From a virus: DNA of 64,000 bases. The notes beneath the pieces were generated by a model. That model was not told the origin of the DNA. It searched no databases and worked only from the letters and a program-made list of their open reading frames with translations. How positions within the stretch are numbered: the stretch's first letter is position 1; each line of letters begins with the position of its first letter. This document shows positions 19,062 through 53,330 of the stretch, one piece after another. The translations under genes were made by a program, and so were the position numbers. The stretch lies in IMG/VR virus record IMGVR_UViG_3300025120_000020; one strand, 5' to 3'.

Positions 19062-19083
19062 ATTTAAAATTGCATATACTTAC

Positions 19084-23790: not shown

Positions 23791-23804
23791 TGTAATTAAA
23801 TACA

Positions 23805-38243: not shown

Positions 38244-39298
38244 AACAACTCTTTTTTAGATATACCAAGCACTCGTGCTTTATAGTCATCCATATTCTCT
38301 AGTCTATCAGCCTCTTCTTCAATTAATTTGTTTTGAAGTTCAGCCATCATGATCATACGGTCTCTTTCTTCACGATCTTGAAATGCTTCTACCAGAGCAA
38401 AGATAGATCCATTTTCTTCACCTTTAGCTTTCAGTCTTGCGGTTCTAGATCCATTCAAGTCTTTCGTTAGGGATTCGATGCGCTTCTCGCACTGGTTAAG
38501 CTCTTCGCTGGTGGCCTTGATAATCTCCGTCAGACGCATTGTGATGTCCCTTTCGTTGTCTTGGTCGTCTAGTAGTGCATTAAGCTTGTCAATACGCATC
38601 TGGATGTGTTTCTGGCGCACGTAGTTAGCACATACGGTCACATATAGATTCAATTCGTCGTTAGTGAGGTCAGGCTTGTCCCAAATAGCACGGACGAACT
38701 CACTTTCGAATAAATTTCTGTCAGCTAGAGTTGAATACTGATTAATAAAATGATTGAAGCGAGGGCTTTTAAAATAAAGAATTAATTGCTCTACTAGTTT
38801 CTTTTGTTTTGTTTGGAGGGTTAGTTCTTCTAGGGTAGCTCCACAGAAGTTGTTTATCTTAACAATTGCTCTGTTTATAGACTTGGGAGGAGTCCACTTC
38901 TCTTTTGTAACAATTTCGTTATCGTCTACAATCTCTGGCCGATAAGTTTTTAAGAAATCGACAATAACCCTGTGCTTCATGCTCAAGGGTTGAACGTCAC
39001 GGTCTTTGAAGGTGAGTCGGGCAATTTCTAGTGCATTCATCCCAACTTCAATATTGTCAGTCATCAAGAACTCTTTTTGTTCCCTATTTAGATGAACCTG
39101 CTCTACTTTCGGGGCAAGTGATGTATTTGCTTTTTTGTCTTGTCCAGCTAAGAACTTCCTCACTGCACGGCCCTGTTTCGATCTCCCATCAATATCCTCG
39201 TCATTGAATACTTTGCGGGTAATAAACATCAAATCGGGGTTTGTTTTAAACAATTTAAGAATTTCCTCTTTCTGCTCTTCTGTTAAATCATATATCAT
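38240..39298 (-). CDS. Hypothetical protein, possible terminase small subunit
   Basis: Two genes upstream of terL; long C-terminal coiled coil. Confidence 0.4.
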   Translation of the reverse strand: MIYDLTEEQKEEILKLFKTNPDLMFITRKVFNDEDIDGRSKQGRAVRKFLAGQDKKANTSLAPKVEQVHLNREQKEFLMTDNIEVGMNALEIARLTFKDRDVQPLSMKHRVIVDFLKTYRPEIVDDNEIVTKEKWTPPKSINRAIVKINNFCGATLEELTLQTKQKKLVEQLILYFKSPRFNHFINQYSTLADRNLFESEFVRAIWDKPDLTNDELNLYVTVCANYVRQKHIQMRIDKLNALLDDQDNERDITMRLTEIIKATSEELNQCEKRIESLTKDLNGSRTARLKAKGEENGSIFALVEAFQDREERDRMIMMAELQNKLIEEEADRLENMDDYKARVLGISKKELL

Positions 39299-39975
39299 TA
39301 TATATCCTCCTCTTTTACTAACTTAGCTGCTATATTGTAAAACTTCTTCTTCAGGTTGTTTATTTGTTTGTATCTAGGTGTCTTTCTTCTACTTGTATCT
39401 CGCTTGAACCCAAACTTCTTAGCAACCTCTGCTTCATCTACGTGATCTATAAACAAAAGCTTATATATCTCTTTATGCTTGTCGTTTAACTCAGCCATAA
39501 CCAAAAGATGTATCTTGGACGTTTTCTTATCATAGTCCAATTCATCTTCATTTATTCTATCTTTAACCGATATTAAAGCATCTAAAGAGACTGGCATCTT
39601 TAAATGAAACGCGCTTTGTTTTTTATTCTTCCATTTAGCGAAGTCCCCACACTCTTCGTCCTGCTCCTTGCTTTTAGTAAAGCTACACTCATCTCCACCT
39701 AAATAAAAAGAACACCGCAAACACGGTTTAGCGAAGTTCCCATAATGATTCCTTATCAGATTCTTTATCTGATTACTAATCAACATAGAAGCCCAAGGCT
39801 TAAATGCTCTCTTCTGATCCCACAAATGCCACTTTTTATAGATATGAGTGCGGATTATTTGAGATACATCATCATAATCCAACCAAGCTATGGAATTAAG
39901 TTGCCACTTGGTTCTATACCTACTTAAAAGTTCTTCTATCTCTGGAATAAGGTCTTCATACCTTTTATCCATCAA
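39298..39975 (-). CDS. Second sigma-factor-like protein (ECF-like, Cys-rich insert)
   Basis: YDDVSQIIRTHIYKKWHLWDQKRAFKPWASMLISNQIKNLIR (region 2), CLRC/C/C insert, LNDKHKEIYKLLFIDHVDEAEVAKKFG (region 4). Confidence 0.6.
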   Translation of the reverse strand: MMDKRYEDLIPEIEELLSRYRTKWQLNSIAWLDYDDVSQIIRTHIYKKWHLWDQKRAFKPWASMLISNQIKNLIRNHYGNFAKPCLRCSFYLGGDECSFTKSKEQDEECGDFAKWKNKKQSAFHLKMPVSLDALISVKDRINEDELDYDKKTSKIHLLVMAELNDKHKEIYKLLFIDHVDEAEVAKKFGFKRDTSRRKTPRYKQINNLKKKFYNIAAKLVKEEDI

Positions 39976-40339
39976 TGTCTTGAATTCTAGATGAAGCGCA
40001 ATCAGCTTGGCTCTGTTTAATCATAGCGTCACCCTCGGGCAAATTTGCTGCTGGCCTAGAAGTCCTACTCCTATTGGCATCTTCAGGAGTGGCAGATTTC
40101 CAGAGATCAGTTAATGTAGTGTTCTGCGAGCTAGCTTCTGCTACAATGTCTCTCTTCATTTTTTTCAAATCAAAGGAACGAGGACTCTCTTCCTCATAAT
40201 CAATTTCAGCAACAGCTTCTCGTCGAGCTGGCGCGGGTGCTGCCGCTCCAATCGACGAACCACACGCCGAACAAAACTTGGGTTTGGTCACCTCATACAC
40301 GTTTTTTTGACCGCAGGATGAACAGAAAACTTTATTCAT
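39965..40339 (-). CDS. Zinc-ribbon protein
   Basis: FCSSCG...KPKFCSACG. Confidence 0.65.
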   Translation of the reverse strand: MNKVFCSSCGQKNVYEVTKPKFCSACGSSIGAAAPAPARREAVAEIDYEEESPRSFDLKKMKRDIVAEASSQNTTLTDLWKSATPEDANRSRTSRPAANLPEGDAMIKQSQADCASSRIQDIDG

Positions 40340-40347
40340 ATGAAATT

Positions 40348-41022
40348 TTATTGATTTGGGGCTAATAATTCAATTTTTTCTACAAGATATGTAATAATTT
40401 TATCTCTTATCACATCTTCCTTACTAAACTCTACACTATGCACCCCTTTTTTGGAACTTTGCTCGTCTTTAAACAAATTAGCCAACTTAGTAAACCCACT
40501 ACTCCTAATGTCACTCTGCAAACTATCCCCACACACAAATAACCTACTGCCACGACCAATCCTTGTAAGCACAGTAGTCAACTCTCTCACACTCATATTC
40601 TGAGCCTCATCCACAATCACAATCTTATCCCGCCAAGTGCATCCGCGCAAAAAGTTAATCGGCTCCGCTTCTAATACTCTTTTGTTTTTTAACTGGTCTT
40701 TCTCTGGCTTGTTCAATAACTCGTCAATCTTATCAAGTAACGGAGCCATATATGGCCCAAACTTATCATCCATATCACCTTTCAGAAAACCTATCCCCCT
40801 ATCCGCACTCTCCACAACACTACGCAAATACAATATTTTTAAGTTTTTGTCGTTATTATACAAATCTAAGGCACTATAAACAGAAAGAAATGTCTTAGCC
40901 GTTCCTGCTGGCCCACCCAGAAATACAATCCGAGTATTGTTGTCTGACATTATGTCATAGAATTCTTTTTGTTTTTTTGTTAATTCAATATGACCCAATA
41001 ACAAGCTGCTGTCTTTTATCAT
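40348..41022 (-). CDS. phoH: PhoH-like ATPase
   Basis: GPAGTAKT, GFLKGD, FLRGCTW, IVDEAQNM, LTRIG, GDSLQSD. Confidence 0.92.
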   Translation of the reverse strand: MIKDSSLLLGHIELTKKQKEFYDIMSDNNTRIVFLGGPAGTAKTFLSVYSALDLYNNDKNLKILYLRSVVESADRGIGFLKGDMDDKFGPYMAPLLDKIDELLNKPEKDQLKNKRVLEAEPINFLRGCTWRDKIVIVDEAQNMSVRELTTVLTRIGRGSRLFVCGDSLQSDIRSSGFTKLANLFKDEQSSKKGVHSVEFSKEDVIRDKIITYLVEKIELLAPNQ

Positions 41023-41247
41023 TTCTTTTTATTTATTACACGGGTTTAGCTTTTGTTTTGTTTTATTCTGTGGCGCACCGCCACTTTTAATATGAAAAAT
41101 AACTTCTTTATAGTGTTCACCACCCCCCGCGCTGTATGCGTCAAGCACAAAAGTCAAAAAGTTTCAGAAAACCCCTCCCCTAAAAAAAAATACATTTATA
41201 TGCAGAAAAAGCTTTTTGTTTACCCTGATCTGTGATAAAATACACGC

Positions 41248-41523
41248 ATGGCAACGATATACTTCTCAGGAGGAAAAGCGAAACACGCAAACGAAATCAA
41301 GAGTTTCGTCATCATCTCGAAAACCGCTGAAGGCAAAGAGGTTGTTTGGGGCGAGACCACAAACACTAAAACAGTTGAGAAATTGAGAAGTGGTCAACAC
41401 TGGGCTTTCCCCGAAGGGAAGTTCGTTCGCGTCGAGGAGTTTGAGAACGCAAAGGCTTCTTGGGCTTCCAAGCATGGAGAAAGGCTGGAACTTCTTTATG
41501 GTCGCAACTCCCGACCCCGTTAA
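41248..41523 (+). CDS. Early hypothetical protein (leaderless)
   Basis: TG-A-TAAAAT (41236-41241) 6 nt before ATG. Confidence 0.7.
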   Translation: MATIYFSGGKAKHANEIKSFVIISKTAEGKEVVWGETTNTKTVEKLRSGQHWAFPEGKFVRVEEFENAKASWASKHGERLELLYGRNSRPR

Positions 41524-42037: not shown

Positions 42038-42103
42038 GGGTGGCCAATGGTTTCGACGGGACGCGAGTCTCGGATGGGGGTTCGATCCCCCCGCCATCCA
42101 CCA
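42038..42103 (+). ncRNA. tmRNA tRNA-like domain only (mini-tmRNA), 66 nt
   Basis: Acceptor GGGTGGC/GCCATCC with G3.U70, discriminator A, encoded CCA; D-loop CAATGGTTTCGA; helix CGGGAC-GCGA-GTCTCG; GAT linker; T arm GGGGG-TTCGATC-CCCCC. Confidence 0.85.
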
Positions 42104-42152
42104 AAAAAAATACTTGACACGTTGAGTTTTTATGTTATAAAAAAAATCGCTC

Positions 42153-42227
42153 TAACTAACTGAGTATCAACGAGTTACGGGGAAGCGCCCCGCCCCCGCC
42201 CGTAACTGACTGAGTATCAACGACTTA
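42153..42227. repeat. Box-spacer-box element 1 (C-rich spacer orientation)
   Basis: TAACTAACTGAGTATCAACGAGTTA + CGGGGAAGCGCCCCGCCCCCGCCCG + TAACTGACTGAGTATCAACGACTTA. Confidence 0.95.
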
Positions 42228-42344
42228 CGAAGGTTTTTTCTATATCAAAACAAGCCATCGTGTCAAGCCCTTTTAAATAAAAAAAAGATTAAATATATGC
42301 AGAAAAAGCTTTTCTTTTGTGAGATTCTCCTGTATACTATGCCC

Positions 42345-42590
42345 ATGTCCGACACTACTACATCACCAACGTTCCGCACCTACAAGACCAAGCATCTGAT
42401 TCTCTCGGTCTACCGCACGGGAATGACTTACTTGCACATCTCTGTAAAAAATAGCCAGTGGAGTCGCTATAAGTTCCAAGCTATCACCCGCGAGCAAGCA
42501 GCTAAAGCCCTCCTTGATATCCGCGCAGCCAAACGCGCAGCCAAGAGAGTAGAGGCCGAAGCCCTTGTTTCTGTCGCTTCTTACCTCTAA
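42345..42590 (+). CDS. Early hypothetical protein (leaderless)
   Basis: TATACT at 42333-42338, 6 nt before ATG 42345. Confidence 0.7.
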   Translation: MSDTTTSPTFRTYKTKHLILSVYRTGMTYLHISVKNSQWSRYKFQAITREQAAKALLDIRAAKRAAKRVEAEALVSVASYL

Positions 42591-42608
42591 AAAAGATCAA
42601 AATAATCC

Positions 42609-42637
42609 TTGCACCAACCCCAAATCTAGACTATAAT
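42609..42637 (+). promoter_or_regulatory. Sigma-70-type early promoter
   Basis: TTGCAC-17-TATAAT. Confidence 0.8.
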
Positions 42638-42646
42638 TCTCTCGTT

Positions 42647-42982
42647 ATGAAAAACACCACTACCACTACCACCACCCGCTTCGATCACGCCCTCTATGGA
42701 CTCAGTGACGAAGACCTCAAGACTAAGCTCACCAATCGCGTGGTGACTTACTTCAACAGCGACGAATCCTCTGTCAAAAATGACGGCGTTCGTCAGTTCG
42801 TGATCAAGTCAATCGACTACACTGGTCACGCCAAAGGATCGGGTCGTCGCTACATCCAAGGCGAGGTTCAAGACCTCGACGATGGAGGCAAGACCAAGTT
42901 CCGCACTCTGCACGTTGCAGGGATCGAAAAGGTGAAAGGTCGCGTGGCGACCGCTTACCAGCTAGCCAAATCAGTTTTCTAA
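42647..42982 (+). CDS. Early hypothetical protein
   Basis: 111-aa ORF between promoter and terminator. Confidence 0.75.
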   Translation: MKNTTTTTTTRFDHALYGLSDEDLKTKLTNRVVTYFNSDESSVKNDGVRQFVIKSIDYTGHAKGSGRRYIQGEVQDLDDGGKTKFRTLHVAGIEKVKGRVATAYQLAKSVF

Positions 42983-42997
42983 TGGTGTGTGTGTCTA

Positions 42998-43035
42998 CCC
43001 GTCAGTCTCTTCGGAGGCTGGCGGGTTTTTTTTTG
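42998..43035 (+). terminator. Intrinsic terminator
   Basis: CCCGTCAGTCTC-TTCG-GAGGCTGGCGGG + T tract. Confidence 0.85.
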
Positions 43036-43089
43036 ATTTATATGCAAAAAGATCTTGCGCGTGATTCTTTTTTCGAGTATACTATCGGC

Positions 43090-43317
43090 ATGGCAACAGT
43101 AACACAAAACCACTTAGCAGACTTAGCATATCAAGCAGGACTCCGAGGTCATGAGAGTATCACCTGCCCCCGTTCATACCTTGGCTGGGTAATCCCAGAA
43201 ATGTTCGAAGATGGAGCGATGGCCTTCGGGATCTGGAGGCACTTCTGGGCAGAGGGTGAGCGGGTCGAGAGGGAAGCTTGCGCTCGCGATTACGATGACA
43301 GTCGATTGGATTACTAA
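43090..43317 (+). CDS. Early hypothetical protein (leaderless)
   Basis: TTGCGC-17-TATACT (43055-43083), ATG 6 nt downstream. Confidence 0.7.
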   Translation: MATVTQNHLADLAYQAGLRGHESITCPRSYLGWVIPEMFEDGAMAFGIWRHFWAEGERVEREACARDYDDSRLDY

Positions 43318-43331
43318 TCCGCACCACACAA

Positions 43332-43357
43332 GGCTCCCGAAAGGGAGCTTTTTTTTT
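43332..43357 (+). terminator. Intrinsic terminator
   Basis: GGCTCCC-GAAA-GGGAGCT + T tract. Confidence 0.85.
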
Positions 43358-43417
43358 GAATTAAATTAATCTTTTGTGTTGACATCCGCGAGAAAACAGT
43401 TAATAAAAAAATCCTCC

Positions 43418-43492
43418 TAACTCACTGAGTATCAAGGAGTTGCGGGCGGGGGCGGGGCCGTGGCCCCTAACTCGTTGAGTATCAAGGACTTA
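43418..43492. repeat. Box-spacer-box element 2 (G-rich spacer orientation)
   Basis: TAACTCACTGAGTATCAAGGAGTTG + CGGGCGGGGGCGGGGCCGTGGCCCC + TAACTCGTTGAGTATCAAGGACTTA. Confidence 0.95.
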
Positions 43493-43632
43493 CAACGTTT
43501 TTTTCTTTATAGTAAACAAGGAGAGAGTCAAGCCTAAAAATAAAAATAAATGCTGTCTGACAGATTAAAAAAAGATTAAAATACATGCAGAAAAACCTTT
43601 TAATCTCTGAGTTTTTAGAGTAAAATATGCAC

Positions 43633-43845
43633 ATGACCAACCAAGACAACATCACCCGCCTGATCAAGAAGCAGTTTGTTTACACCACTTCTAACAATGG
43701 AAATCTTCGCATGTATCAACTTCGCGGGGTTGAGCATTCCACCAAGGACTTCGCAGTTTGTAAAGTGGTTGACGTAAGTCACGACAGCAAGACGGGCGAC
43801 GAGGAAATTTTCAGAACTCTCTACTTCTCACGCATAGAAAAATAA
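43633..43845 (+). CDS. Early hypothetical protein (leaderless)
   Basis: TAAAAT 6 nt before ATG 43633; C-terminal FRTLY echoes FRTLH of 42647-42982. Confidence 0.65.
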   Translation: MTNQDNITRLIKKQFVYTTSNNGNLRMYQLRGVEHSTKDFAVCKVVDVSHDSKTGDEEIFRTLYFSRIEK

Positions 43846-43868
43846 TTAAAAAAACATTTAAAAAGGGC

Positions 43869-43897
43869 TTGCGCCCATCCCCCAAATCCTTTATACT
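43869..43897 (+). promoter_or_regulatory. Sigma-70-type promoter upstream of the tRNA-like RNA
   Basis: TTGCGC-17-TATACT. Confidence 0.75.
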
Positions 43898-43911
43898 CCC
43901 CCCAGTAAGAA

Positions 43912-44025
43912 AGCTCTATAGTTTAAAAAGTAAAACATTCTCCACGGCCTCTCCAATCATAAGCCACCGCAACCCAAATGGTTCGGGCGAGAAAGACAAA
44001 GGTGCAATTCCTTTTAGAGCAACCA
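43912..44025 (+). ncRNA. tRNA-like RNA with 46-nt insert in place of the anticodon loop
   Basis: Acceptor AGCTCTA/TAGAGCA + A + CCA; D stem GTTT/AAAC; anticodon stem TTCTC/GAGAA around 46 nt; T arm AAAGG-TGCAATT-CCTTT. Confidence 0.7.
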
Positions 44026-44045
44026 ATTTTCCAGACACAAACACT

Positions 44046-44198
44046 ATGAACTTATCAAAAGAATCACAGGAAGCAATAGAAGCAATGAAGAAGGCCGAAG
44101 AGAATTGGGACAAGATGGTTGCTAGAGCTTCCGAGGTCTCAGGTCAATTCCAGAAAGAGTGCCAAGAGTTGAAAGTTGAATTGGAGGAATTAAAATAG
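44046..44198 (+). CDS. Small helical protein, paralogue of 41588-41779
   Basis: MNLSKESQEAIEAMKKAEENWDKMVARASEVSGQFQKECQELKVELEELK. Confidence 0.75.
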   Translation: MNLSKESQEAIEAMKKAEENWDKMVARASEVSGQFQKECQELKVELEELK

Positions 44199-44202
44199 AG
44201 TC

Positions 44203-44400
44203 ATGAAAGAAGAAAAAAATCCACTCCTCGCGAGTGCTGAAACCGCTTTAGCTTTTGAAGAAGCAATGAAAGAATACATCGCGGAGCTTGAGGTTGATGG
44301 TGTAGTTAGTTACAGCCACTTTACTTTGCGCCGTTTACATAATCGTTTTGGCAGGGAAGCTGTCCAAGGATGGCTGAATAATCACTTTGATAATAAATAA
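44203..44400 (+). CDS. Hypothetical protein
   Basis: 65-aa ORF in the same operon. Confidence 0.65.
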   Translation: MKEEKNPLLASAETALAFEEAMKEYIAELEVDGVVSYSHFTLRRLHNRFGREAVQGWLNNHFDNK

Positions 44401-44401
44401 A

Positions 44402-45127
44402 ATGAAAAAACTCCTAATCATCACACTGCTTGCTGTATCAGTTTACTTCTTTCAGGAGGCTGGCAAAGTGGCCAATAAAGAAAAACAAGTAAAGGTTACC
44501 CCGACGACTGTCGAGATTCAGAAGCAAGCCGCGCCTGAGATTGTTAAAACATGGCAAGCACCCGTGCTTGTTAAGCCAAAGCGTTTTTACAAGAGAGACA
44601 AGAAAGAAGATCTAGTTCCTGTTCTTGTTAGACCTAAAAAATCCTACAGGGTCGAAGAGGTTAAAAAAGAAATCAAAAAAGAAATCTCTGCTTGGGATAA
44701 AATGTTTTCTAAAGTAAAACACTACGAGAGTTTTAAGTCTAAAGCGTATCGTTGCAGTGGTGGAGTCATGACTATCGGCTATGGCCATACCAAAAATGTT
44801 AGATGGGGCGACACTATCACAGAATCAGAAGCAGTGAAACTGTTAGAAGAAGAATTACTTGTTGCTAAAAATCATGTGATGAGAATTGTAAAAGTTCCAT
44901 TGACCGAAAATCAATTGGCATCACTCACAAGTTTTACTTTTAACTGTGGTCAAGGTTCACTAAGCAAATTGGTCTGTGAAAAAAAGAATAGACTCAATAA
45001 TGGAAACTATAAAAGCGTTGAGGTGGTCATGCCTCAATATAGAATGGCAGCGGGGAAAATCCGAAAAGGTTTGGAGCTTCGGAGAAAATGGGAAGTTTCT
45101 TTGTGGCGTGATAAAAATTCACTATAA
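44402..45127 (+). CDS. GH24 phage lysozyme with N-terminal signal/anchor
   Basis: MKKLLIITLLAVSVYFF; YESFKSKAYRCSGGVMTIGYGHT (E-x8-C-x5-T); LTENQLASLTSFTFNCG; GLELRRKWE. Confidence 0.85.
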   Translation: MKKLLIITLLAVSVYFFQEAGKVANKEKQVKVTPTTVEIQKQAAPEIVKTWQAPVLVKPKRFYKRDKKEDLVPVLVRPKKSYRVEEVKKEIKKEISAWDKMFSKVKHYESFKSKAYRCSGGVMTIGYGHTKNVRWGDTITESEAVKLLEEELLVAKNHVMRIVKVPLTENQLASLTSFTFNCGQGSLSKLVCEKKNRLNNGNYKSVEVVMPQYRMAAGKIRKGLELRRKWEVSLWRDKNSL

Positions 45128-45141
45128 TAAAAAAAACTCTG

Positions 45142-45216
45142 TAAGTCGTTGAACGTCAAGGAGTTACGAGCGGGGGCGGGGCCAATGGCCCTAACTCGTT
45201 GAGCATCAGTGACTTA
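45142..45216. repeat. Box-spacer-box element 3 (G-rich orientation)
   Basis: TAAGTCGTTGAACGTCAAGGAGTTA + CGAGCGGGGGCGGGGCCAATGGCCC + TAACTCGTTGAGCATCAGTGACTTA. Confidence 0.95.
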
Positions 45217-45235
45217 GAAGGTTTTTTAATTTTAG

Positions 45236-45289
45236 GCTTCTCTGTAACTCACTGAGCTTCTCTGTAACTCACTGAGTATCAGTTGGTTA
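45236..45289. repeat. 20-bp tandem duplication and solo box
   Basis: GCTTCTCTGTAACTCACTGA x2; the second copy continues into box TAACTCACTGAGTATCAGTTGGTTA (45265-45289). Confidence 0.85.
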
Positions 45290-45396
45290 TAACGCAATAT
45301 ATCTGGCCCTATATATTTGACTTATTTGTTGTTAACCTTAATGACCTTTGTGCTTTTTTCTCTTGACGAAAAGAAACTATAATGTAGAATTCACTT

Positions 45397-45603
45397 ATGC
45401 CTAAATCAACTGAATCCGTCCGTATCGAAGTTAGAAACCAAGATCAGGCTATCATGCTTGAATATGCTTTACGTCTCGTTCATCAACACCTAGCCGAAAG
45501 GATGGGGGATGTCCAAGATGATAAGTTTGAAAGCTTCGTTGATAACGTAAAGTGGACACGCAAGCACGTTGCTGCATTAAACGAAAAGTTTGCTCTTAGT
45601 TAA
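45397..45603 (+). CDS. Early hypothetical protein (leaderless)
   Basis: TTGACG-16-TAGAAT (45363-45390), ATG 6 nt downstream; terminator-like hairpin at about 45623-45660. Confidence 0.75.
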   Translation: MPKSTESVRIEVRNQDQAIMLEYALRLVHQHLAERMGDVQDDKFESFVDNVKWTRKHVAALNEKFALS

Positions 45604-45708
45604 TCGCAAGGTTGGCTATCCAAACCTCTCCTACTTTTCTAGACAGTGGGAGGGGTTTTTTTTCTTTTTTAATTTGACGCTTGGTCAATTTTCCCCCATA
45701 CTCCCGAC

Positions 45709-45945
45709 ATGACAGTTCAAAATCCTATTGCTGATAGTCTCGCCCCGATGAATGAAACAGACTTACGCGACATGCTCGATGATGGACCTCGCGCTGGCAA
45801 CTTTAACCCCACGCCCGAAGTAGTGGGAGAGTTGCTCGCGCAGATCCAAAACGATATGGGTGATCGTAACCCCGAATGGTCTTCTGATGATGGCCTCTCA
45901 CCCGCAGACGCGCAAGCTCTTCAAAATCACCTCGACGGAGAATAA
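45709..45945 (+). CDS. Acidic early hypothetical protein (leaderless)
   Basis: TTGACG-17-CATACT (45674-45702), ATG 6 nt downstream. Confidence 0.75.
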   Translation: MTVQNPIADSLAPMNETDLRDMLDDGPRAGNFNPTPEVVGELLAQIQNDMGDRNPEWSSDDGLSPADAQALQNHLDGE

Positions 45946-45955
45946 AAAATCGTTT

Positions 45956-46030
45956 TAACTCCTTGAACGTCAAGGAGTTGCGGCAAAGCCCCCCGCCCCG
46001 CCCCGTAAGTCGTTGATAATCAGTGACTTA
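45956..46030. repeat. Box-spacer-box element 4 (C-rich orientation)
   Basis: TAACTCCTTGAACGTCAAGGAGTTG + CGGCAAAGCCCCCCGCCCCGCCCCG + TAAGTCGTTGATAATCAGTGACTTA. Confidence 0.95.
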
Positions 46031-46221
46031 CGGGGTTTTTCTCTTTATCATAAAGCTGGGGGGGATGTCAAGCTTATTTGTTAAAATATTTGGCATTGTT
46101 AGCGCAAAAAAAATCACTTTTAATGCAAAAAAGGTATTGCGCTTCACAAAAAAATGGTTTAGACTCTCACCAGTTCAGAGGCAGTTCTCTGACAGTTAAC
46201 CAACTAGAAACTACTACTACT

Positions 46222-47019
46222 ATGAAAAACCTAATCTACTCCTCCAACAAAGTCAGCTATGATCAACTCAAAGAAGTTGAAAAGCCTGATCCTATGGGTT
46301 CGCGTCACTTCCCAATTGACCATCACGAGTTGGTCGATATCGCCAAGCGCGAACTGGAACACAGTGGCTTTGACATTGTGCAGGAAGAACACGGTCTCGC
46401 TGAGAAAGGCATGAATTGCTTTTCTGGTTTTGCCATTCGCAAGTCAGACTTTGATAATACTGACCGCGAGCTTGTCTTTGGTCTTCGGAACTCCCACAAT
46501 CAAAAGTTTGCTAGTTCTGTAGCGGTTGGTTCCTCAATGCTTGTTTGCGAGAATCTTTGCTTTTCCTCTGACATTACCCTGTCACGGAAGCACACCCGCA
46601 ACATTTTTCAGGATCTCCCACTAGTTATGGCCGAAGCCATTGGTTCCATCCAAAAGACTTGGGACAATGAAGGCAAGCGAATTGAGACTTACAAGAACAC
46701 CGAGGCTGATGAGATCGAGGTAATCAACAAGCTTCTCAAGGCTGGTTTGATCAAGCCCACCAAGATTGAAAAATTCTTGGATCTTGTTCAGAATGGTGGC
46801 GTTGATGTTGACGGCACAAAGGGAGCTTTCCACGAGCATCGCGGGACACTCTGGAATATCTTCAATGCTGTCACAGAATCCTACAAGGATTTGACTGCCA
46901 ACAATGTCATGCACCTACCACGCATGACAATGCAAACCCAAGGTATTCTCGACAGGGTTGCAAACCCTTCCTTGATTACTGCGGAAGATCGCAATTCCGC
47001 ACTCGTTTTATCTGCCTAG
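46222..47019 (+). CDS. DUF932-family protein
   Basis: PIDHHELV, LRNSHNQK, MLVCENLCF, RKHT, GTLWNIFNAVTE; promoter TTGCGC-17-TAGACT at 46137-46165. Confidence 0.7.
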   Translation: MKNLIYSSNKVSYDQLKEVEKPDPMGSRHFPIDHHELVDIAKRELEHSGFDIVQEEHGLAEKGMNCFSGFAIRKSDFDNTDRELVFGLRNSHNQKFASSVAVGSSMLVCENLCFSSDITLSRKHTRNIFQDLPLVMAEAIGSIQKTWDNEGKRIETYKNTEADEIEVINKLLKAGLIKPTKIEKFLDLVQNGGVDVDGTKGAFHEHRGTLWNIFNAVTESYKDLTANNVMHLPRMTMQTQGILDRVANPSLITAEDRNSALVLSA

Positions 47020-47027
47020 CCTATAAC

Positions 47028-47050
47028 GCCCCCCGAAAGGGGGGCTTCTT
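47028..47050 (+). terminator. Terminator-like hairpin
   Basis: GCCCCCC-GAAA-GGGGGGC + TTCTT. Confidence 0.65.
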
Positions 47051-47053
47051 ATC

Positions 47054-47167
47054 ATGAAAGAACAGGACAGAACTTTTTTTGAGAATGTGGTTTTTACTTG
47101 CATGTTCATTTTGTCAGGTATAATATCTCTTGTCGGCGTTGTGCATCTTTTTAAAATGGCGTTTTAA
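47054..47167 (+). CDS. 37-aa single-TM peptide (not in ORF track)
   Basis: MKEQDRTFFENVVFTCMFILSGIISLVGVVHLFKMAF; followed by a hairpin at about 47190-47225. Confidence 0.55.
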   Translation: MKEQDRTFFENVVFTCMFILSGIISLVGVVHLFKMAF

Positions 47168-47248
47168 TTTTCATCGTGGTCGATAGCGTAACCTCGTCCC
47201 CTCTGCATGGGGGGCGGGGTTTTTCTTTTCTAATAATAAAAAACGCTG

Positions 47249-47323
47249 TAAGTCGTTGAGTATCAATGAGTTACGGGCGGGGGCGGGGCCGCGCCCCGTA
47301 AGTCGCTATCGTTCAGTGGCTTA
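47249..47323. repeat. Box-spacer-box element 5 (G-rich orientation)
   Basis: TAAGTCGTTGAGTATCAATGAGTTA + CGGGCGGGGGCGGGGCCGCGCCCCG + TAAGTCGCTATCGTTCAGTGGCTTA. Confidence 0.95.
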
Positions 47324-47397
47324 TGAAGATTTTTTTAAATTAAAAAAACATTAAAAAGGCTTGTTTTGAAATCAAATTCTGTCAGAATACTCTCGTT

Positions 47398-47613
47398 ATG
47401 GAACAAGAGATACCAACAATCAGATTGACAGGACATTTCAATAAAACCTTCAGTGTTAAAAAGGAGGAGAAGGCTTACAAGGGCTTAGAATATTCCATTG
47501 AATGGGATTTTGATAAGAAGAAAACCCGCATCCCGATTTCGACACACGGTGCGATTGAACTATCAGAAGTGTTTGATAAGCTAGGCTTCACACAAATTCA
47601 CCGCGAAAGCTAA
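47398..47613 (+). CDS. Early hypothetical protein
   Basis: 71 aa; promoter/leader shared with the 48297 gene. Confidence 0.7.
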   Translation: MEQEIPTIRLTGHFNKTFSVKKEEKAYKGLEYSIEWDFDKKKTRIPISTHGAIELSEVFDKLGFTQIHRES

Positions 47614-47617
47614 AACC

Positions 47618-47800
47618 ATGACAATAGAAGTAGAAAGAAAAGAAGTTTACGGTAATACTCTGACTTATGTGAAAAAAGAATCTGTCAGGAATTCCATAAA
47701 GAAACTAACAGGAAGAAAAACTTTAACCGACTACGACGTTGAAGCTCTTAAAGAGTTGGGATTTGTCTTGGTCATTGAACAAGTAACAGAAAGAATTTAA
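47618..47800 (+). CDS. Hypothetical phage protein
   Basis: KEVYGNTLTY...LTGRKTLT...LKELGF. Confidence 0.7.
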   Translation: MTIEVERKEVYGNTLTYVKKESVRNSIKKLTGRKTLTDYDVEALKELGFVLVIEQVTERI

Positions 47801-47803
47801 ATT

Positions 47804-48094
47804 ATGATTAAAGAACACACAATGCCATGCATCCACATGAATGGATCGGGAGAGACCAGCCTACGCAGACAATACAACGAATTGTTTGAAGCTGTAAGCG
47901 AGGCGCAAATTAAACTGCTTTTTGATACAGACTTCCATCAAAGGGATTACTACCCTCTTGGGGATGAAGCTTGGGATAAAGCTTATCAAGAAAGAGAAGA
48001 GGTTAAGAAGGCAATGAATACAGTCTATCAATATGCGAAGCAGCATATGCACTTCCTTGAATATGGAAAGGAGCCATTGCCAGATGAGCATTAA
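47804..48094 (+). CDS. Hypothetical phage protein
   Basis: PCIHMNGSG...FHQRDYYP. Confidence 0.7.
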   Translation: MIKEHTMPCIHMNGSGETSLRRQYNELFEAVSEAQIKLLFDTDFHQRDYYPLGDEAWDKAYQEREEVKKAMNTVYQYAKQHMHFLEYGKEPLPDEH

Positions 48095-48108
48095 ATAAAA
48101 ATATCTCC

Positions 48109-48183
48109 TAAGTCATTGAATATCAGTGGCTTAGGGGCAAGCCCCCCGCCGCGCCCCGTAACTCCTTATCAATCAGTGAGTTA
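48109..48183. repeat. Box-spacer-box element 6 (C-rich orientation)
   Basis: TAAGTCATTGAATATCAGTGGCTTA + GGGGCAAGCCCCCCGCCGCGCCCCG + TAACTCCTTATCAATCAGTGAGTTA. Confidence 0.95.
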
Positions 48184-48296
48184 CGAGGTTTTTTTCTATA
48201 TACGAAAAAACTAATAGTGCAAGCTCAAAATAAAATAATAAAAAACATTAAAAAAGCCTTGTCTCGCAGGAAAAATCCTGTCAGAATACTCTCGTT

Positions 48297-48647
48297 ATGG
48301 GATTAGATCAATACGCAGAACGAAGGGATTCAAATGGAGAAGATTGCGAAATCACCAATTGGAGAAAGCACAACGCCTTGCAAGGTTGGATGGAAAACCT
48401 CTGGACTCTCAAAACTGGGAAGCCAGCAGATGAATTAAACTGCCATGAAGTCGAATTGACTGCCGAGGATTTAGAAAGTCTGTGGGCAGTGGTTGAGGCT
48501 GGAAAGTTGCCGGAAACTGTGGGTTTCTTTTACGGTGCTGACAGTAGTCAGGATGAGTGGAGAAAAGAGAAGGATCTTAAATTTATCAAGGAGGCTCTTG
48601 AGGCGATTGATGAAGGGGACAAAGTTTTTTATTCTTGCTGGTGGTAA
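48297..48647 (+). CDS. Conserved-looking phage protein
   Basis: MGLDQYA...WRKHNALQGWM...LPETVGFFYG...VFYSCWW. Confidence 0.75.
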   Translation: MGLDQYAERRDSNGEDCEITNWRKHNALQGWMENLWTLKTGKPADELNCHEVELTAEDLESLWAVVEAGKLPETVGFFYGADSSQDEWRKEKDLKFIKEALEAIDEGDKVFYSCWW

Positions 48648-48671
48648 ATCTTTAATCAAAAATAAAACACA

Positions 48672-49376
48672 ATGAAATTACTTAATTCAGGCAACGCCAA
48701 AACCCTCAAGGGTGAAAAGGTTGGGTTCCGCACATTCGGACTCCATCTTTCCCCTGCTACCAAATCAGGATTCAACGTCTGCCAATGGGCAAGCGCGGGA
48801 TGTCGTGCAGCTTGTTTAGATACAGCGGGGCGCGGTTGTATGTCCAACGTGCAAAATTCTAGAATCGCTAAAACGCGAAGGTTCTTTAAAGATAACTTGG
48901 GTTTTATGTCGGATCTTCGAATTGAAATCGGCAAGGCTATCAAAAGCGCAGCGAGAAAAAGCCTCACCCCTTGTTTCCGTCTCAATCTTACAAGCGATAT
49001 TCCTTGGGAGAACATGAAGAAGGGGAGCAAGACAAGTGTGATCGAAGAATTCCCAGAGGTTAATTTTTATGATTATACCAAGGGCTTCCCTAGAATGATG
49101 GCTTGGCTTCATGGTAAGATGCCCGACAACTACCACCTGACCTTTTCCCGCAGTGAAGAGACTAGCGATGACAGAATAAAAAAGATTCTTTCGCTAGGCG
49201 GGAACGTTGCGATTGTTTTCCGCGCTTCGCTTCCTAAAACTTATCTTGGTTTTACTGTCGTCGATGGTGATGAGAACGATCTCCGCTTCAAAGATGAAAA
49301 GGGCGTGATCGTTGGATTGGTCGAGAAAGGTCTTGCAAAAAAAGACGAAACTGGTTTTGTAGTGGAGCCAAAATGA
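48672..49376 (+). CDS. GP88-like protein (Cys-cluster, radical-SAM-related)
   Basis: CQWASAGCRAACL, FRLNLTSDIPWE, FYDYTK, YHLTFSRSE, DGDENDLRF. Confidence 0.7.
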   Translation: MKLLNSGNAKTLKGEKVGFRTFGLHLSPATKSGFNVCQWASAGCRAACLDTAGRGCMSNVQNSRIAKTRRFFKDNLGFMSDLRIEIGKAIKSAARKSLTPCFRLNLTSDIPWENMKKGSKTSVIEEFPEVNFYDYTKGFPRMMAWLHGKMPDNYHLTFSRSEETSDDRIKKILSLGGNVAIVFRASLPKTYLGFTVVDGDENDLRFKDEKGVIVGLVEKGLAKKDETGFVVEPK

Positions 49377-49450
49377 CAAGCGGAGAATCAGACACCTTGA
49401 TCATTTTAATCATGGCGATTATCGCTATAATATTCAGGAAAAGAAATTAA
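49373..49450 (+). CDS. 25-aa hydrophobic peptide (not in ORF track)
   Basis: MTSGESDTLIILIMAIIAIIFRKRN; ATGA overlap with upstream stop. Confidence 0.45.
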   Translation: MTSGESDTLIILIMAIIAIIFRKRN

Positions 49451-49463
49451 GAAAAATAAAAAC

Positions 49464-49646
49464 ATGGAACCAATAAAACCAGACTTCTCAGAAGCAAACA
49501 AGTTCGCCGTCTTAAATAGAGGGTTTAGAGATGAATTCGACAAAGCCTATAAAAATTTTTGGAAGCGTAGGAACATGGAAACCCCTGATCTTGGTTGGTT
49601 CGGGGATAGGAAAAAGAGAAAAGAAGAAATGAAATCTGCTAAATAA
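49464..49646 (+). CDS. Hypothetical protein
   Basis: 60-aa ORF ending just before element 7. Confidence 0.65.
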   Translation: MEPIKPDFSEANKFAVLNRGFRDEFDKAYKNFWKRRNMETPDLGWFGDRKKRKEEMKSAK

Positions 49647-49656
49647 AAAACCCTCG

Positions 49657-49731
49657 TAACTCGTTGACTATCAACGGGTTACGGGCGGGGGCGGGGCCAC
49701 TCGCCGTAACTCCTTACTAATCAGTGACTTA
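49657..49731. repeat. Box-spacer-box element 7 (G-rich orientation)
   Basis: TAACTCGTTGACTATCAACGGGTTA + CGGGCGGGGGCGGGGCCACTCGCCG + TAACTCCTTACTAATCAGTGACTTA. Confidence 0.95.
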
Positions 49732-49797
49732 GAGCGGAAATTTTTAATTAATTTAAATTTGACGATCCTCCCGCTTCATGGTATGTTTCCCTCAGAC

Positions 49798-50139
49798 ATG
49801 AAAAAACAAGTAAGCACAAAGAGACTCCTAGAAGCTCTACTTCAAACCTACATGGATACCAATGACCTAAAGAACATTTACAACGGCGACGGAAGCGAGC
49901 TAATGACGGTTGATGAAGCTGTAAAGTTCGTCGATGGGTTGAAAGAGGAGGCTAGTCCTGAGCAGGTTGCATTTGAATCTCAACTGGACACTATGATAGA
50001 AGAGTTTAGGACGGTCTTCCCTCCTTCTATAGGCGAAGCCGAACGTGGGGCGGGTCAAGGCACTTGGTTTGACCTTATGCACAGCATCTGGAACAAGCAC
50101 GTTCAAGTTGAGTTGATGGAAAGATACAGCAATCTATAA
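49798..50139 (+). CDS. Early hypothetical protein
   Basis: Promoter TTGACG-17-TATGTT (49759-49787); ATG 49798. Confidence 0.7.
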   Translation: MKKQVSTKRLLEALLQTYMDTNDLKNIYNGDGSELMTVDEAVKFVDGLKEEASPEQVAFESQLDTMIEEFRTVFPPSIGEAERGAGQGTWFDLMHSIWNKHVQVELMERYSNL

Positions 50140-50143
50140 TACT

Positions 50144-50347
50144 ATGAAGCAAGAAGAACAAACCTCTTCAACACGGATGCGGGGCTGGTTATATGATGTC
50201 AACATTTTAGAGATGGCTAGAATAGCTTGCGCCTCAATACCAGAAGACCTTTGTGAGCAGATGGATTTATCTGATGAGTGGTTCATCGAGATTAGAGACT
50301 ACATACAAAACGAACTAAATGGATACCATGATGCACGAACGAATTAA
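50144..50347 (+). CDS. Hypothetical protein
   Basis: 67-aa ORF in the same operon. Confidence 0.65.
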   Translation: MKQEEQTSSTRMRGWLYDVNILEMARIACASIPEDLCEQMDLSDEWFIEIRDYIQNELNGYHDARTN

Positions 50348-50588
50348 AAAACTAAAAAAAGAAGCTCCAGAGGAGATCCCACTGTTTCTAAAAGCGGGGG
50401 GGATCTTCAACACGATTGACGGATTGTCGATCACTGGAGACAAACAAAAGCTGGAACAAATAGAAAAGATTTTGGATTTTACCCCTTCAACAAAAGATGG
50501 TCGCGACTTGAGATCTGTAATGATCTTGAGGGCAGAGGCTAAATCTGAAGAGGGAATGTTTGGAAATGGCACATTCTTAATCGATTAA
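50328..50588 (+). CDS. Hypothetical protein
   Basis: ORF in the same operon; start uncertain. Confidence 0.6.
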   Translation: MMHERIKKLKKEAPEEIPLFLKAGGIFNTIDGLSITGDKQKLEQIEKILDFTPSTKDGRDLRSVMILRAEAKSEEGMFGNGTFLID

Positions 50589-50602
50589 AAAAATAAAAAC
50601 AA

Positions 50603-50899
50603 ATGACAATAACAAACAAAGAACTACTGGGGTTCGCGAAAACGCAAAACTCAAACGCCAAACTGCACCTTGATTGTAGTATCACTTGACTGGCAGCACA
50701 AGCAGCTACTCAGTTGAGTGGTAAAGAACACAGAATGGTGGGGTGGAACCAATTTGACGATTTTACAGAAGACCTCACATATACAAAAGTGTCTCCTGAA
50801 TACGCTGAATGGTCTGAAGGGGTTAACAACCACAACATGGAAAATAATACCTATATCACATTCCAAGACGCTATCGAAGCTCTAGAATCTTTTGATTAA
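50603..50899 (+). pseudogene. ORF interrupted by one in-frame TGA at 50687-50689
   Basis: ATG 50603 is in frame with track ORF 50714-50899; reads ...LHLDCSIT*LAAQAATQLSGKEHRM... Confidence 0.55.
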
Positions 50900-50914
50900 A
50901 AAATAAAATCTTCG

Positions 50915-50989
50915 TAACTCGTTGACCGCCAGCGAGTTACGGAGGGGGGCGGGGCCGACCCGCCTAACTCCTTACTACTCAATGGGTTA
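50915..50989. repeat. Box-spacer-box element 8 (G-rich orientation); degenerate solo box follows at 51012-51036
   Basis: TAACTCGTTGACCGCCAGCGAGTTA + CGGAGGGGGGCGGGGCCGACCCGCC + TAACTCCTTACTACTCAATGGGTTA. Confidence 0.92.
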
Positions 50990-52118: not shown

Positions 52119-52796
52119 TTATACTCTGGCAGGAGTCTCAATTACATTCTTATAAGCAAGATCATATAGCTTTAGCCCCAAATCTTTTCCCCAGATAGTA
52201 AACAAAGACTCTTCTAGCATTTTATTATACCTCAATGCGGCTTCTTCTTCTGTTTCAAGATTTTTTGATAAACTAAAAGCTTTCCCGCTTTGATCTATTG
52301 TATTCTTTGTATCTATCCTAGCTTTAAATTTTCCCCTATCACTTGTTACCCCTTTATGTGGACTAAAGCCTTCTCTTTTCGGGCCTCTCTTTAAATTATT
52401 CTCTAATTGAGTAACAATCATTAGATTACTGTGATGATTATTGCTTGGGTCGCCATCAATATGATCAGGACATACTTGATTACAAATGAAAGTAAATTCT
52501 GTTGGGGTCTTTAAAATATGTCTGTCTCTGCCTACTAGTAAACCATAGTAAGATACTAAGGGAGATTTAGGTAAAAGATCATGGAATGTTTCTGCTATTA
52601 ACGCATGAACTCCCATAGGTGTCATTTTAGAATTTAAATAAGGGCATACATTTACATATCTACTAAATGACCTTGAGTTGGCCTTTAAAACCTTATCATT
52701 CTTCCTAACACTATGAACTTGTGAGGTGTTAAAATCTATTTCATAATCAGGATAAGTAACACCCTGATAAATAATTGGCCTTCTAAGTGAATTCAT
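52119..52796 (-). CDS. HNH homing endonuclease with AP2-like domain
   Basis: VHALIAETF, PDHIDGDPSNNHHSNL...ENN, HKGVT...FKARI...TEEEAALRYN. Confidence 0.8.
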   Translation of the reverse strand: MNSLRRPIIYQGVTYPDYEIDFNTSQVHSVRKNDKVLKANSRSFSRYVNVCPYLNSKMTPMGVHALIAETFHDLLPKSPLVSYYGLLVGRDRHILKTPTEFTFICNQVCPDHIDGDPSNNHHSNLMIVTQLENNLKRGPKREGFSPHKGVTSDRGKFKARIDTKNTIDQSGKAFSLSKNLETEEEAALRYNKMLEESLFTIWGKDLGLKLYDLAYKNVIETPARV

Positions 52797-52799
52797 TGG

Positions 52800-53330
52800 T
52801 TATTCTGTATCTTTCAATCTGCTTATGTGCATATTATACATGTTTGCATGAACTGTAAAGCCATTAGACGGATCTACATCTCCTTTTTTCCAGAATTTAG
52901 CCTTCTCAAAATATTCTTTTTTAGGCATAAAGCCACATAACCATATAGATTCTACCCCGTGATAAGTAGCACTACGCCCTTTGCCCCGCTTCTCCTTAAA
53001 TGTAATAGAAATAAATGCGTAAGTATCTGCCTTTTGATGCTTGCTAGTCTCAGCTATAGATACTTCATAAGAAGGTCTTGGGTCAACAGTTCTTCTTTTG
53101 GTCTTGACATCTATTTTTAAATCATTTTTTATTAGATCATAGTTGTATTTCTCGTTACCTTCGTCACAAGAAACATTATTGCACTGCAAATCTTCAGCTA
53201 AAGCTATCTCAGCCAAGTATCCAGCCAAGTTACCACCTCCCGAAGTGATAGAATTATTTATAGAACCTAGATTTTTTGCCTTTTTAACAGCCTCATCTAT
53301 CATTGACTGATTAAATTTTAATTTTCTCAT
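52800..53330 (-). CDS. PD-(D/E)XK-like nuclease family protein
   Basis: GYLAEIA...YDLIKNDLKIDVKTK. Confidence 0.5.
   Translation of the reverse strand: MRKLKFNQSMIDEAVKKAKNLGSINNSITSGGGNLAGYLAEIALAEDLQCNNVSCDEGNEKYNYDLIKNDLKIDVKTKRRTVDPRPSYEVSIAETSKHQKADTYAFISITFKEKRGKGRSATYHGVESIWLCGFMPKKEYFEKAKFWKKGDVDPSNGFTVHANMYNMHISRLKDTE

Follow-up and report, generated by a model that had tools for sequence, protein, structure and literature searches.

Paired palindromic boxes at a conserved spacing mark the ends of small-gene cassettes in a family of uncultured marine phages

We analyzed a viral DNA stretch of 64,000 nucleotides (hereafter the window) from the IMG/VR record IMGVR_UViG_3300025120_000020 and characterized an intergenic element that occurs in it eight times. 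Each copy, numbered e1 to e8 in order of position (Table 1), consists of a 25-nt palindromic box, a 25-nt spacer and a second 25-nt box. The same architecture recurs in many related phages, where it is found at the boundaries of cassettes of small genes. We tentatively propose that the element may be a protein-bound, bidirectional terminator or insulator module at the cassette ends, which would double as a recombination joint.

A degenerate 24-nt pattern of the box, TAASTNNNTNNNNNNCANNGNNTT, matches the window at the 16 boxes of the eight elements and nowhere else, while the chance expectation from shuffled sequences is 0.12 matches and the observed count was reached by none of the shuffles. 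All eight start positions agree with a preliminary description of this DNA, which was made from the sequence alone and which portrayed the elements as exactly spaced, intergenic, with an almost pure G/C spacer, an A tract on the left and usually a T tract on the right. Within the window this portrait is accurate. The spacers contain 84-100% G+C in a genome of 38% G+C, and all eight elements are intergenic. The left A run is present in all eight cases and usually contains the stop codon or codons of the preceding gene, which lie 10-20 nt before e3, e4, e6, e7 and e8. Behind each of the eight elements a T run is found on both strands, at +6 to +10; on the + strand they lie within 6-10 nt in all cases, the run of e7 being weak. 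The asymmetric spacer consists of a G run with C-rich sequence after it, and three elements (e1, e4 and e6) are inverted with respect to e2, e3, e5, e7 and e8. A solitary ninth box is located 73 nt beyond box 2 of e3, where a 20-nt tandem duplication of TTCTCTGTAACTCACTGAG at 45238-45289 yields a partial box and then the solitary one.

The family extends well beyond the window. A scan of IMG/VR with a two-box pattern returned at least 120 stretches, from which 275 unique elements were extracted; the family counts given here rest on the matches listed. A near relative, G001, carries four collinear elements with the boxes likewise 50 nt apart. When the boxes were located independently of each other, the box-to-box distance among the matches listed was 50 nt in 285 of 320 neighbouring pairs (89%) and 51, 43-44, 34-35 or 60 nt in the others. 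The 25-nt spacing is thus kept in relatives, whereas strict exactness holds within the window but not across the family. The carriers are diverse: PhoH proteins of the element-bearing loci share a median identity of 46% (minimum 28%), and orthologues of the window and of a relative classified as 100% complete by CheckV (G002, 147.7 kb) are mostly 30-70% identical. G002 possesses only seven elements, which fall into two clusters of small genes, and the copy number is 7-12 per genome, limited to small-gene regions. The great majority of elements (249 of 275) are intergenic, mostly between tandem genes; the upstream gene ends at a median of 80 nt from the element (within 30 nt in 37% of cases), and the median distance to the next gene start is 112 nt. 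With respect to the genes, the elements face either way, in a ratio of 63:107. The elements do therefore stand at cassette boundaries, as the preliminary description had proposed. As judged from these sequences, the element family is genuine, old and maintained by selection.

The boxes have the consensus TAA-S-T-C-R-Y-TGA-NNN-TCA-R-Y-G-A-S-TTA, bordered by CG on either side, and its dyad can be summarized as YAA-N4-TTGA-N3-TCAA-N4-TTR. In the lineage of the relative G003 the consensus is shifted. We compared 111 orthologous pairs of elements in which both outer flanks are 70-98.5% identical. The boxes are the most conserved part (93.4-93.7% identity), followed by the 40-nt arms (89%), the outer flanks (85%) and the spacer (82%). 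This gradient indicates that the boxes are under purifying selection for their sequence, and that the spacer is kept only in its length and G/C richness.

The manner in which the boxes vary bears on whether they are recognized as DNA or as RNA. Compensatory changes were not detected within the boxes, where variable mirror positions pair at the level expected from composition: the Watson-Crick frequency is 0.54 vs 0.46 expected for the pair 4-22, 0.34 vs 0.36 for 7-19, and 0.58 vs 0.62 for 8-18, and a C-C or G-G mismatch occupies the pair 4-22 in ∼46% of boxes. Pairing of box 1 with box 2 is below expectation, and pairing between flank positions -i and +i is near it. The spacers fold no better than shuffled spacers (minimum free energy -11.65 vs -11.05 kcal/mol), and the predicted RNA folds vary from copy to copy. 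Since the half-sites vary independently, the folds differ, spacer folding is unexceptional and both orientations occur, the boxes most likely serve as double-stranded DNA targets of a symmetric protein, rather than as RNA or single-strand hairpins. The geometric protein-DNA complex envisaged in the preliminary description would fit the selection on the boxes, the independence of their half-sites and the conservation of the spacer in length and composition only better than an RNA does.

Three further interpretations were considered and rejected. RNA hairpins, whether formed within a box, between the two boxes, by a closing stem of the flanks or by the spacer, show neither covariation nor excess stability. 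A miniature CRISPR (clustered regularly interspaced short palindromic repeats) array of the repeat-spacer-repeat type is ruled out by the differences between boxes within an element and by the nearly pure G/C spacers, and a protelomerase or hairpin-telomere site by the non-palindromic spacer and the presence of eight copies.

Part of the family combines the boxes with a promoter in fixed register. Of 508 arms, 113 (∼22%) carry an inward-facing, near-consensus TTGACA hexamer at a distance of 39 nt (±2) ahead of the box; in 80 arms TTGAC lies at exactly 39 nt. The hexamer is preceded by an A-rich stretch and followed after 16-17 nt by a hexamer that starts with TA (TATGGG, TATAAA, TAATAA), so the start site is predicted a few nt before the box. 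These promoters are more common on the downstream arm, where they are antisense to the genes, and in elements with a single promoter the G-rich strand is the one transcribed in 48 of 63 cases, versus 15 for the opposite strand. Within the window, they are present in both arms of e1 and e2 and in the right arm of e4.

An alternative is that the elements work at the level of RNA. They could be bidirectional intrinsic terminators composed of three hairpins and U runs or, in cases with an inward promoter, tiny genes encoding structured RNAs of ∼95 nt with a box hairpin, a G-rich core, a second box hairpin and a U tail, which would be partly complementary to each other if both arms were promoted. 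The 9-12-bp hairpins predicted for the box palindromes, the T runs on both strands, the fixed start a few nt before the box and the 48:15 preference for the G-rich transcript are all in line with this explanation, and small RNA genes with promoters of their own, one transfer-messenger RNA (tmRNA)-like and one transfer RNA (tRNA)-like, are located nearby. The RNA of the promoter strand also folds slightly better (-37.8 vs -35.6 kcal/mol, p=0.005), but G-U pairing in G-rich strands can account for this asymmetry. We consider an RNA-level function unlikely: besides the lack of compensatory covariation, the frequent mismatch at the pair 4-22 and the folds that differ between copies, a promoter is found in fewer than a quarter of the arms, the spacer sequence is not conserved between orthologues, Rfam recognizes no family on the elements, and simple terminators would have no need for a box that is conserved between phages with proteins of only 30-50% identity.

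Apart from the inward promoters, the cassettes possess their own sense promoters, which lie at a variable distance of 53-170 nt beyond the element. An operator for the cassette promoters, one of the roles suggested in the preliminary description, was rejected because this distance is not fixed. One family of sense promoters, D4, is repeated in three places in the region and consists of an A-rich stretch, ATGCAGAAAAAGCTT and an extended -10 motif; the -10-like hexamer ends ∼6 nt before the ATG, which suggests that the early mRNAs may be leaderless. Sequence features compatible with termination are found at the elements themselves. Strong terminators formed by a hairpin and a T run are predicted at e4 and at other elements: in e4 a 17-bp hairpin is followed directly by TTTTT, and in the others a gap of 3-6 nt separates the box hairpin from the T run, with the G/C segment 25 nt upstream. 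The arms of the family are symmetric, with many A residues between -15 and -6 and many T residues between +7 and +12, and are only moderately conserved.

From these observations we infer the following mechanism for the proposed terminator or insulator module. A symmetric, probably dimeric, sequence-specific protein would read the two 25-bp dyad boxes as double-stranded DNA, and the 25-bp spacer, of which only the length and G/C richness would matter, would set them exactly 50 bp apart. Being located directly behind the last gene of a cassette, the module would stop transcription that arrives from either side, by means of the box hairpins and T runs on exit and probably also of the bound protein acting as a roadblock; this stop would insulate each cassette's own promoter. 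In about one fifth of the arms, a TTGACA-N17-TAT promoter would fire into the module from a fixed distance, with its start site shortly before the first box. The modules are conserved repeats of ∼100 bp, and homologous recombination between them, and likewise between the repeated promoters, would therefore add or remove cassettes, in the way known for the promoter-early stem-loop (PeSL) cassettes of T4-type phages, which are rearranged by exchange between the PeSL copies (Arbiol et al. 2010, PMC2839356; Comeau et al. 2014, PMC4122927). In this tentative reading, recombination would be a by-product of the module.

The traces of recombination were analyzed by comparing related loci. Ends of high-scoring segment pairs are 3-fold enriched at 40-60 nt from the element centres and depleted inside the elements. 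Homology of the flanks continues across an element in 31% of cases, compared with 43% at other intergenic gaps, and the difference holds within identity bins. Breakpoints are therefore enriched at elements, only modestly above other intergenic gaps. The cassette genes of the window are split between the two separate clusters of G002. Several metagenome contigs skip units made of an element and a cassette (48095->49647, 48095->50901 and 46040->48232, with sides of 25-38 nt), and others join two promoter repeats (42313->43615, likewise with short sides). G002 in addition contains a direct repeat of 4.7 kb with 99.6% identity (18608-23281 and 142979-147652, reaching nearly to the contig end), which adjoins a stretch of ∼1 kb with 89% similarity and starts exactly at an element, where identity rises abruptly from 89% to 99.6%. 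The repeat could represent a true duplication, a pair of diverged long terminal repeats or a strain-chimeric assembly. The paralogous empty site of this repeat holds 57 unrelated nt, with no target-site duplication and no clean insertion.

Some of these observations could also be expected if the elements were primarily recombination sites or mobile DNA, that is, site-specific cassette sites similar to integron attC, or selfish repeats resembling repetitive extragenic palindromic (REP) sequences or miniature inverted-repeat transposable elements (MITEs). The cassette architecture, the different placement of cassettes in related genomes, the repeat that begins at an element, the enrichment of breakpoints and the cassette-skipping joints would agree with this, and so would the 948 iterations of a box of the same pattern inside a MITE-like unit of a bacterial genome described below. 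We nevertheless regard it as improbable. Tyrosine (PF00589) and serine (PF00239) recombinases are absent from the genomes G001-G003, including the complete G002, and the structure of the empty site does not point to insertion, so that the site-specific cassette recombination suggested in the preliminary description finds no backing in the relatives. Within a genome, the spacers of the copies have diverged strongly and the boxes are conserved, which speaks for selection and not for recent spread; the elements are limited to one or two small-gene regions, and most homology breaks lie elsewhere. The bacterial match could be convergent, as the search pattern fixes 16 palindrome positions. Furthermore, the 3-nt centre of the box does not fit the core sites of tyrosine recombinases. 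On the whole, the data appear to fit homologous exchange between conserved 100-bp repeats, as in PeSLs, and not a dedicated site-specific system.

G-rich RNA on a C-rich template is known to favour stable R-loops, as in ColE1 and in the mitochondrial conserved sequence block II (CSBII). The bias of the inward promoters towards G-rich transcripts could accordingly mean that the elements are transcription-primed R-loop sites, either origin-like or initiating recombination. Most elements lack a promoter, however, eight to twelve origins within 9 kb are implausible, and evidence for a replication initiator or DnaA boxes was not found. A related possibility is that of pause signals for DNA entry in the first-entering end of the genome, as proposed for the injection-stop repeats of T5. 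The element cluster abuts the packaging-gene block, and the injection-stop and first-step-transfer region of T5 is likewise rich in conserved palindromes and boxes for host proteins, and comprises ∼10 kb of small early genes with strong promoters (bioRxiv 10.1101/866236). The T5 repeats, on the other hand, are concentrated in untranslated sequence, form one non-coding block, carry DnaA boxes, lack the box-spacer-box unit and are not dispersed as intergenic units. Both variants are judged very improbable.

The resemblance of the boxes to binding sites of the integration host factor (IHF), noted in the preliminary description, is real: at least one full match to the IHF consensus WATCARNNNNTTR (PMC9452768; bioRxiv 10.1101/382655) is present in 228 of 254 elements, each half of the box having the form TCAA-N4-TTR. 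The arrangement differs from that of classical IHF sites, which lack symmetry: one half carries the consensus, and the other has an A tract at a distance of 8 bp. The boxes instead combine two inverted copies of the half-consensus in one 25-bp dyad, the A run ends 18 nt from WATCAA, and conservation reaches 90-95% at box positions 6, 20 and 21, for which the IHF consensus specifies only N. The reading of both halves of a 25-bp box by one IHF/HU-type dimer would depend on the kink register. We thus treat the relation to IHF as a resemblance, and not as demonstrated membership. A literature search for the box sequence gave a single match, a predicted IHF site in Dickeya that is unrelated. The inner halves of the box, TTGA and TCAA, also resemble the split halves of TTGCAA, and it is conceivable that TTGCAA and the box halves have a common reader protein.

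A box-like repeat was also found outside phages. A search of 185,579 species genomes for the two-box pattern gave only 29 stretches, of which a few are phage-like contigs in bins of metagenome-assembled genomes (MAGs) and the rest belong to 24 contigs of a single MAG of Microscillaceae (Cytophagales), G004; five of these loci come from other MAGs. The 6.8-Mb G004 contains 948 strict boxes and no match to a control pattern. Its 25-nt palindrome, TAAsTAnyTGATwATCArnTAsTTA, is intergenic in all 48 cases examined and is often paired at 46 or 50 nt inside a MITE-like unit with CAGCAATTCCCACTTTGGCACAT inverted ends, the spacer of which is A/T-rich and conserved. A general Bacteroidota motif is ruled out by the result that only one box in total was found in 300 other sampled Bacteroidota genomes. 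The match in G004 may reflect a common binding protein or convergence, and we treat it as a lead. It can be speculated that the boxes dock an undescribed conserved, sequence-specific architectural protein with IHF-like half-sites, encoded by the host or the phage, which together with the fixed-length G/C clamp would form an insulator complex separating the transcription units of the phage; the inward promoters would load polymerase or make a G-rich RNA or R-loop, and the same pair of protein and site would serve a Cytophagales bacterium across its genome in a REP-like manner. We view this more specific scheme as rather doubtful.

Several results weigh against a protein-bound terminator or insulator module. 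A T run of five or more is present in only about one third of the arms of the family, and it begins 5-6 nt past the box, farther than in textbook intrinsic terminators. Two elements, e2 and e5, already have canonical terminators ahead of them, so that termination cannot be the sole role. A pure insulator model offers no purpose for the inward promoters. With respect to the recombination joint, the breakpoint enrichment is modest (2-3-fold), and the contig joints may perhaps be repeat artefacts given their short sides. With respect to the binding protein, no HU/IHF gene was found in G001-G003, the complete relative included, and scans of ∼45 proteins of the window and its cassettes with Pfam and PHROGs detected no DNA-binding domain except in a sigma-like protein, leaving no candidate box-binding protein among the cassette and neighbouring products.

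By comparison with known systems, the elements appear functionally closest to PeSLs. The two have in common that they are composite repeats of ∼100 bp located in hyperplastic regions of small ORFans, with an upstream stop codon in an A/T-rich stretch, a polyG/polyC core and near-consensus TTGACA-N17 promoters; a terminator or attenuator role and the shuffling of cassettes by recombination between copies, both putative in the present elements, would be further common traits. PeSLs lack conserved palindromic boxes of 25 bp, keep no set register of 50 bp and are not dyad-symmetric as a whole, and the carriers described here are large siphovirus-type phages unrelated to T4. Moreover, the promoter of a PeSL drives the downstream gene, whereas here the promoter in fixed register points into the element and the cassette promoter is placed apart from it. 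The PeSL-type parallel drawn in the preliminary description is accordingly apt for a repeated motif that flanks cassettes of small ORFans, but not for an internal promoter that drives the downstream gene. The paired palindromes, the fixed spacer and the inward promoter would be the distinct features of the present family.

Two other groups of repeats share part of the architecture. REP sequences, with the derived bacterial interspersed mosaic elements (BIMEs) and REP doublets forming hairpins (REPINs), are likewise short conserved palindrome doublets with a linker, located between genes at their 3' ends. REP/BIME repeats are linked to termination, recombination and the binding of proteins (IHF, gyrase), and REPs are mobilised by REP-associated tyrosine transposases (RAYTs) and act as single-stranded hairpins. 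No RAYT turned up in our analysis, in which no search was aimed at this family. In contrast to REPs, the phage copies are few, occupy one region and are kept by selection rather than by copying. The stoperators of mycobacteriophage L5 are protein-binding sites in the short gaps among small early genes that block elongation. Here too, many copies of one (putative) protein site lie in gaps between small genes, and several cassette genes belong to the L5-type families gp82 and GP88. L5 stoperators, however, are single asymmetric sites of 13 bp that are oriented with transcription and bind the repressor of a temperate phage, while the present boxes are paired and symmetric and occur in either orientation; neither a repressor nor an integrase was found here, unlike in the L5 stoperator phage.

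Hyperplastic small-gene regions are the places where phages evolve fastest, and how genes stay expressible under such shuffling is poorly understood outside the T4 group. The element is a sharply defined cis-signature that makes cassette boundaries easy to search for in a large clade of uncultured marine phages with a global distribution, and it predicts a trans-acting factor that could be retrieved with a 25-bp probe. If this factor were a roadblock or insulator protein, the module would be of practical use as a compact transcriptional insulator that works in either orientation. The elements could further connect the regulatory DNA of phages with a family of REP-like repeats in Bacteroidota.

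Table 1. Elements, predicted promoters and terminators, and neighbouring genes in the window
Feature	Position	Strand	Remarks
Element e1	42153..42227	.	C-rich spacer on + strand (inverted type)
Element e2	43418..43492	.	G-rich spacer on + strand
Element e3	45142..45216	.	G-rich spacer on + strand; begins 15 nt past the lysozyme stop codon
Element e4	45956..46030	.	Inverted type; 17-bp hairpin from box 2 and flank, then T run
Element e5	47249..47323	.	G-rich spacer on + strand
Element e6	48109..48183	.	Inverted type
Element e7	49657..49731	.	G-rich spacer on + strand
Element e8	50915..50989	.	G-rich spacer on + strand
Solitary ninth box	45265..45289	.	Position weight matrix score 23; beside 20-nt local duplication at 45238-45288
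Promoter-like site, e1 left arm	42114..42141	+	TTGACA-16-TATAAA; -35 hexamer 39 nt before box
Promoter-like site, e1 right arm	42239..42266	-	TTGACA-16-TATAGA; antisense to genes
Promoter-like site, e2 left arm	43379..43406	+	TTGACA-16-TAATAA
Promoter-like site, e2 right arm	43504..43531	-	TTGACT-16-TAAAGA
Promoter-like site, e4 right arm	46042..46071	-	TTGACA; -35 hexamer 41 nt before box
Sense cassette promoter region, family D4	42278..42353	+	Other copies at 41181-41256 and 43566-43641
Predicted terminator, GC hairpin and T run	43330..43351	+	Canonical; ahead of e2
Similar predicted terminators	47028-47045 and 47190-47221		Ahead of e5
Sigma70-region-2 protein	39298-39975	-	Left of element cluster
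Zinc-ribbon protein	39965-40339	-	Left of element cluster
PhoH	40348-41022	-	Left of element cluster
tmRNA-like gene	42038-42103		Rfam; just ahead of e1
tRNA-like gene	43912-44022		Rfam

The window represents a large siphovirus-type phage, with genes for the tape measure protein (19084-23805) and the large terminase subunit (TerL, 35435-37327), and also encodes ribonucleotide reductase and three tRNA genes. Public sequencing runs that contain this stretch come from 14 marine or seawater metagenome studies. The phage has no close cultured relative: neither a close relative nor an element match was obtained among 50,697 phage records by megablast of the region, tblastn of TerL and blastn of one element. 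The element cluster forms a + strand island of small genes flanked by two - strand blocks and adjoins the packaging genes. Among the neighbouring genes, phoH represents the family most widely common to element-bearing loci (40 loci). The cassette genes of the window include those for lysozyme, DUF932 and GP88 proteins, and the cassettes of relatives add L5-gp82-like and RuvB-like proteins. The phage lysozyme gene (PF00959, 44387-45127, + strand) makes up a single-gene cassette amid small early-type genes; its homologue in G002 is located in the second cluster on the opposite strand.

A Shine-Dalgarno-like motif is found upstream of only 3 of the 37 long genes in the window, yet promoters of sigma70-like appearance (TTGACA-N17-TAnnnT) are found in the cassette region, which leaves the host lineage ambiguous: the host is possibly not a proteobacterium, and both a lineage with few Shine-Dalgarno motifs, such as Bacteroidota or cyanobacteria, and a proteobacterium are conceivable. 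Finally, an HNH endonuclease gene lies to the right of the element cluster (52119-52796, - strand), and relatives in three of four metagenome runs carry 377 other letters in place of positions 52122-52810, a replacement pattern as expected for a mobile homing-endonuclease gene.

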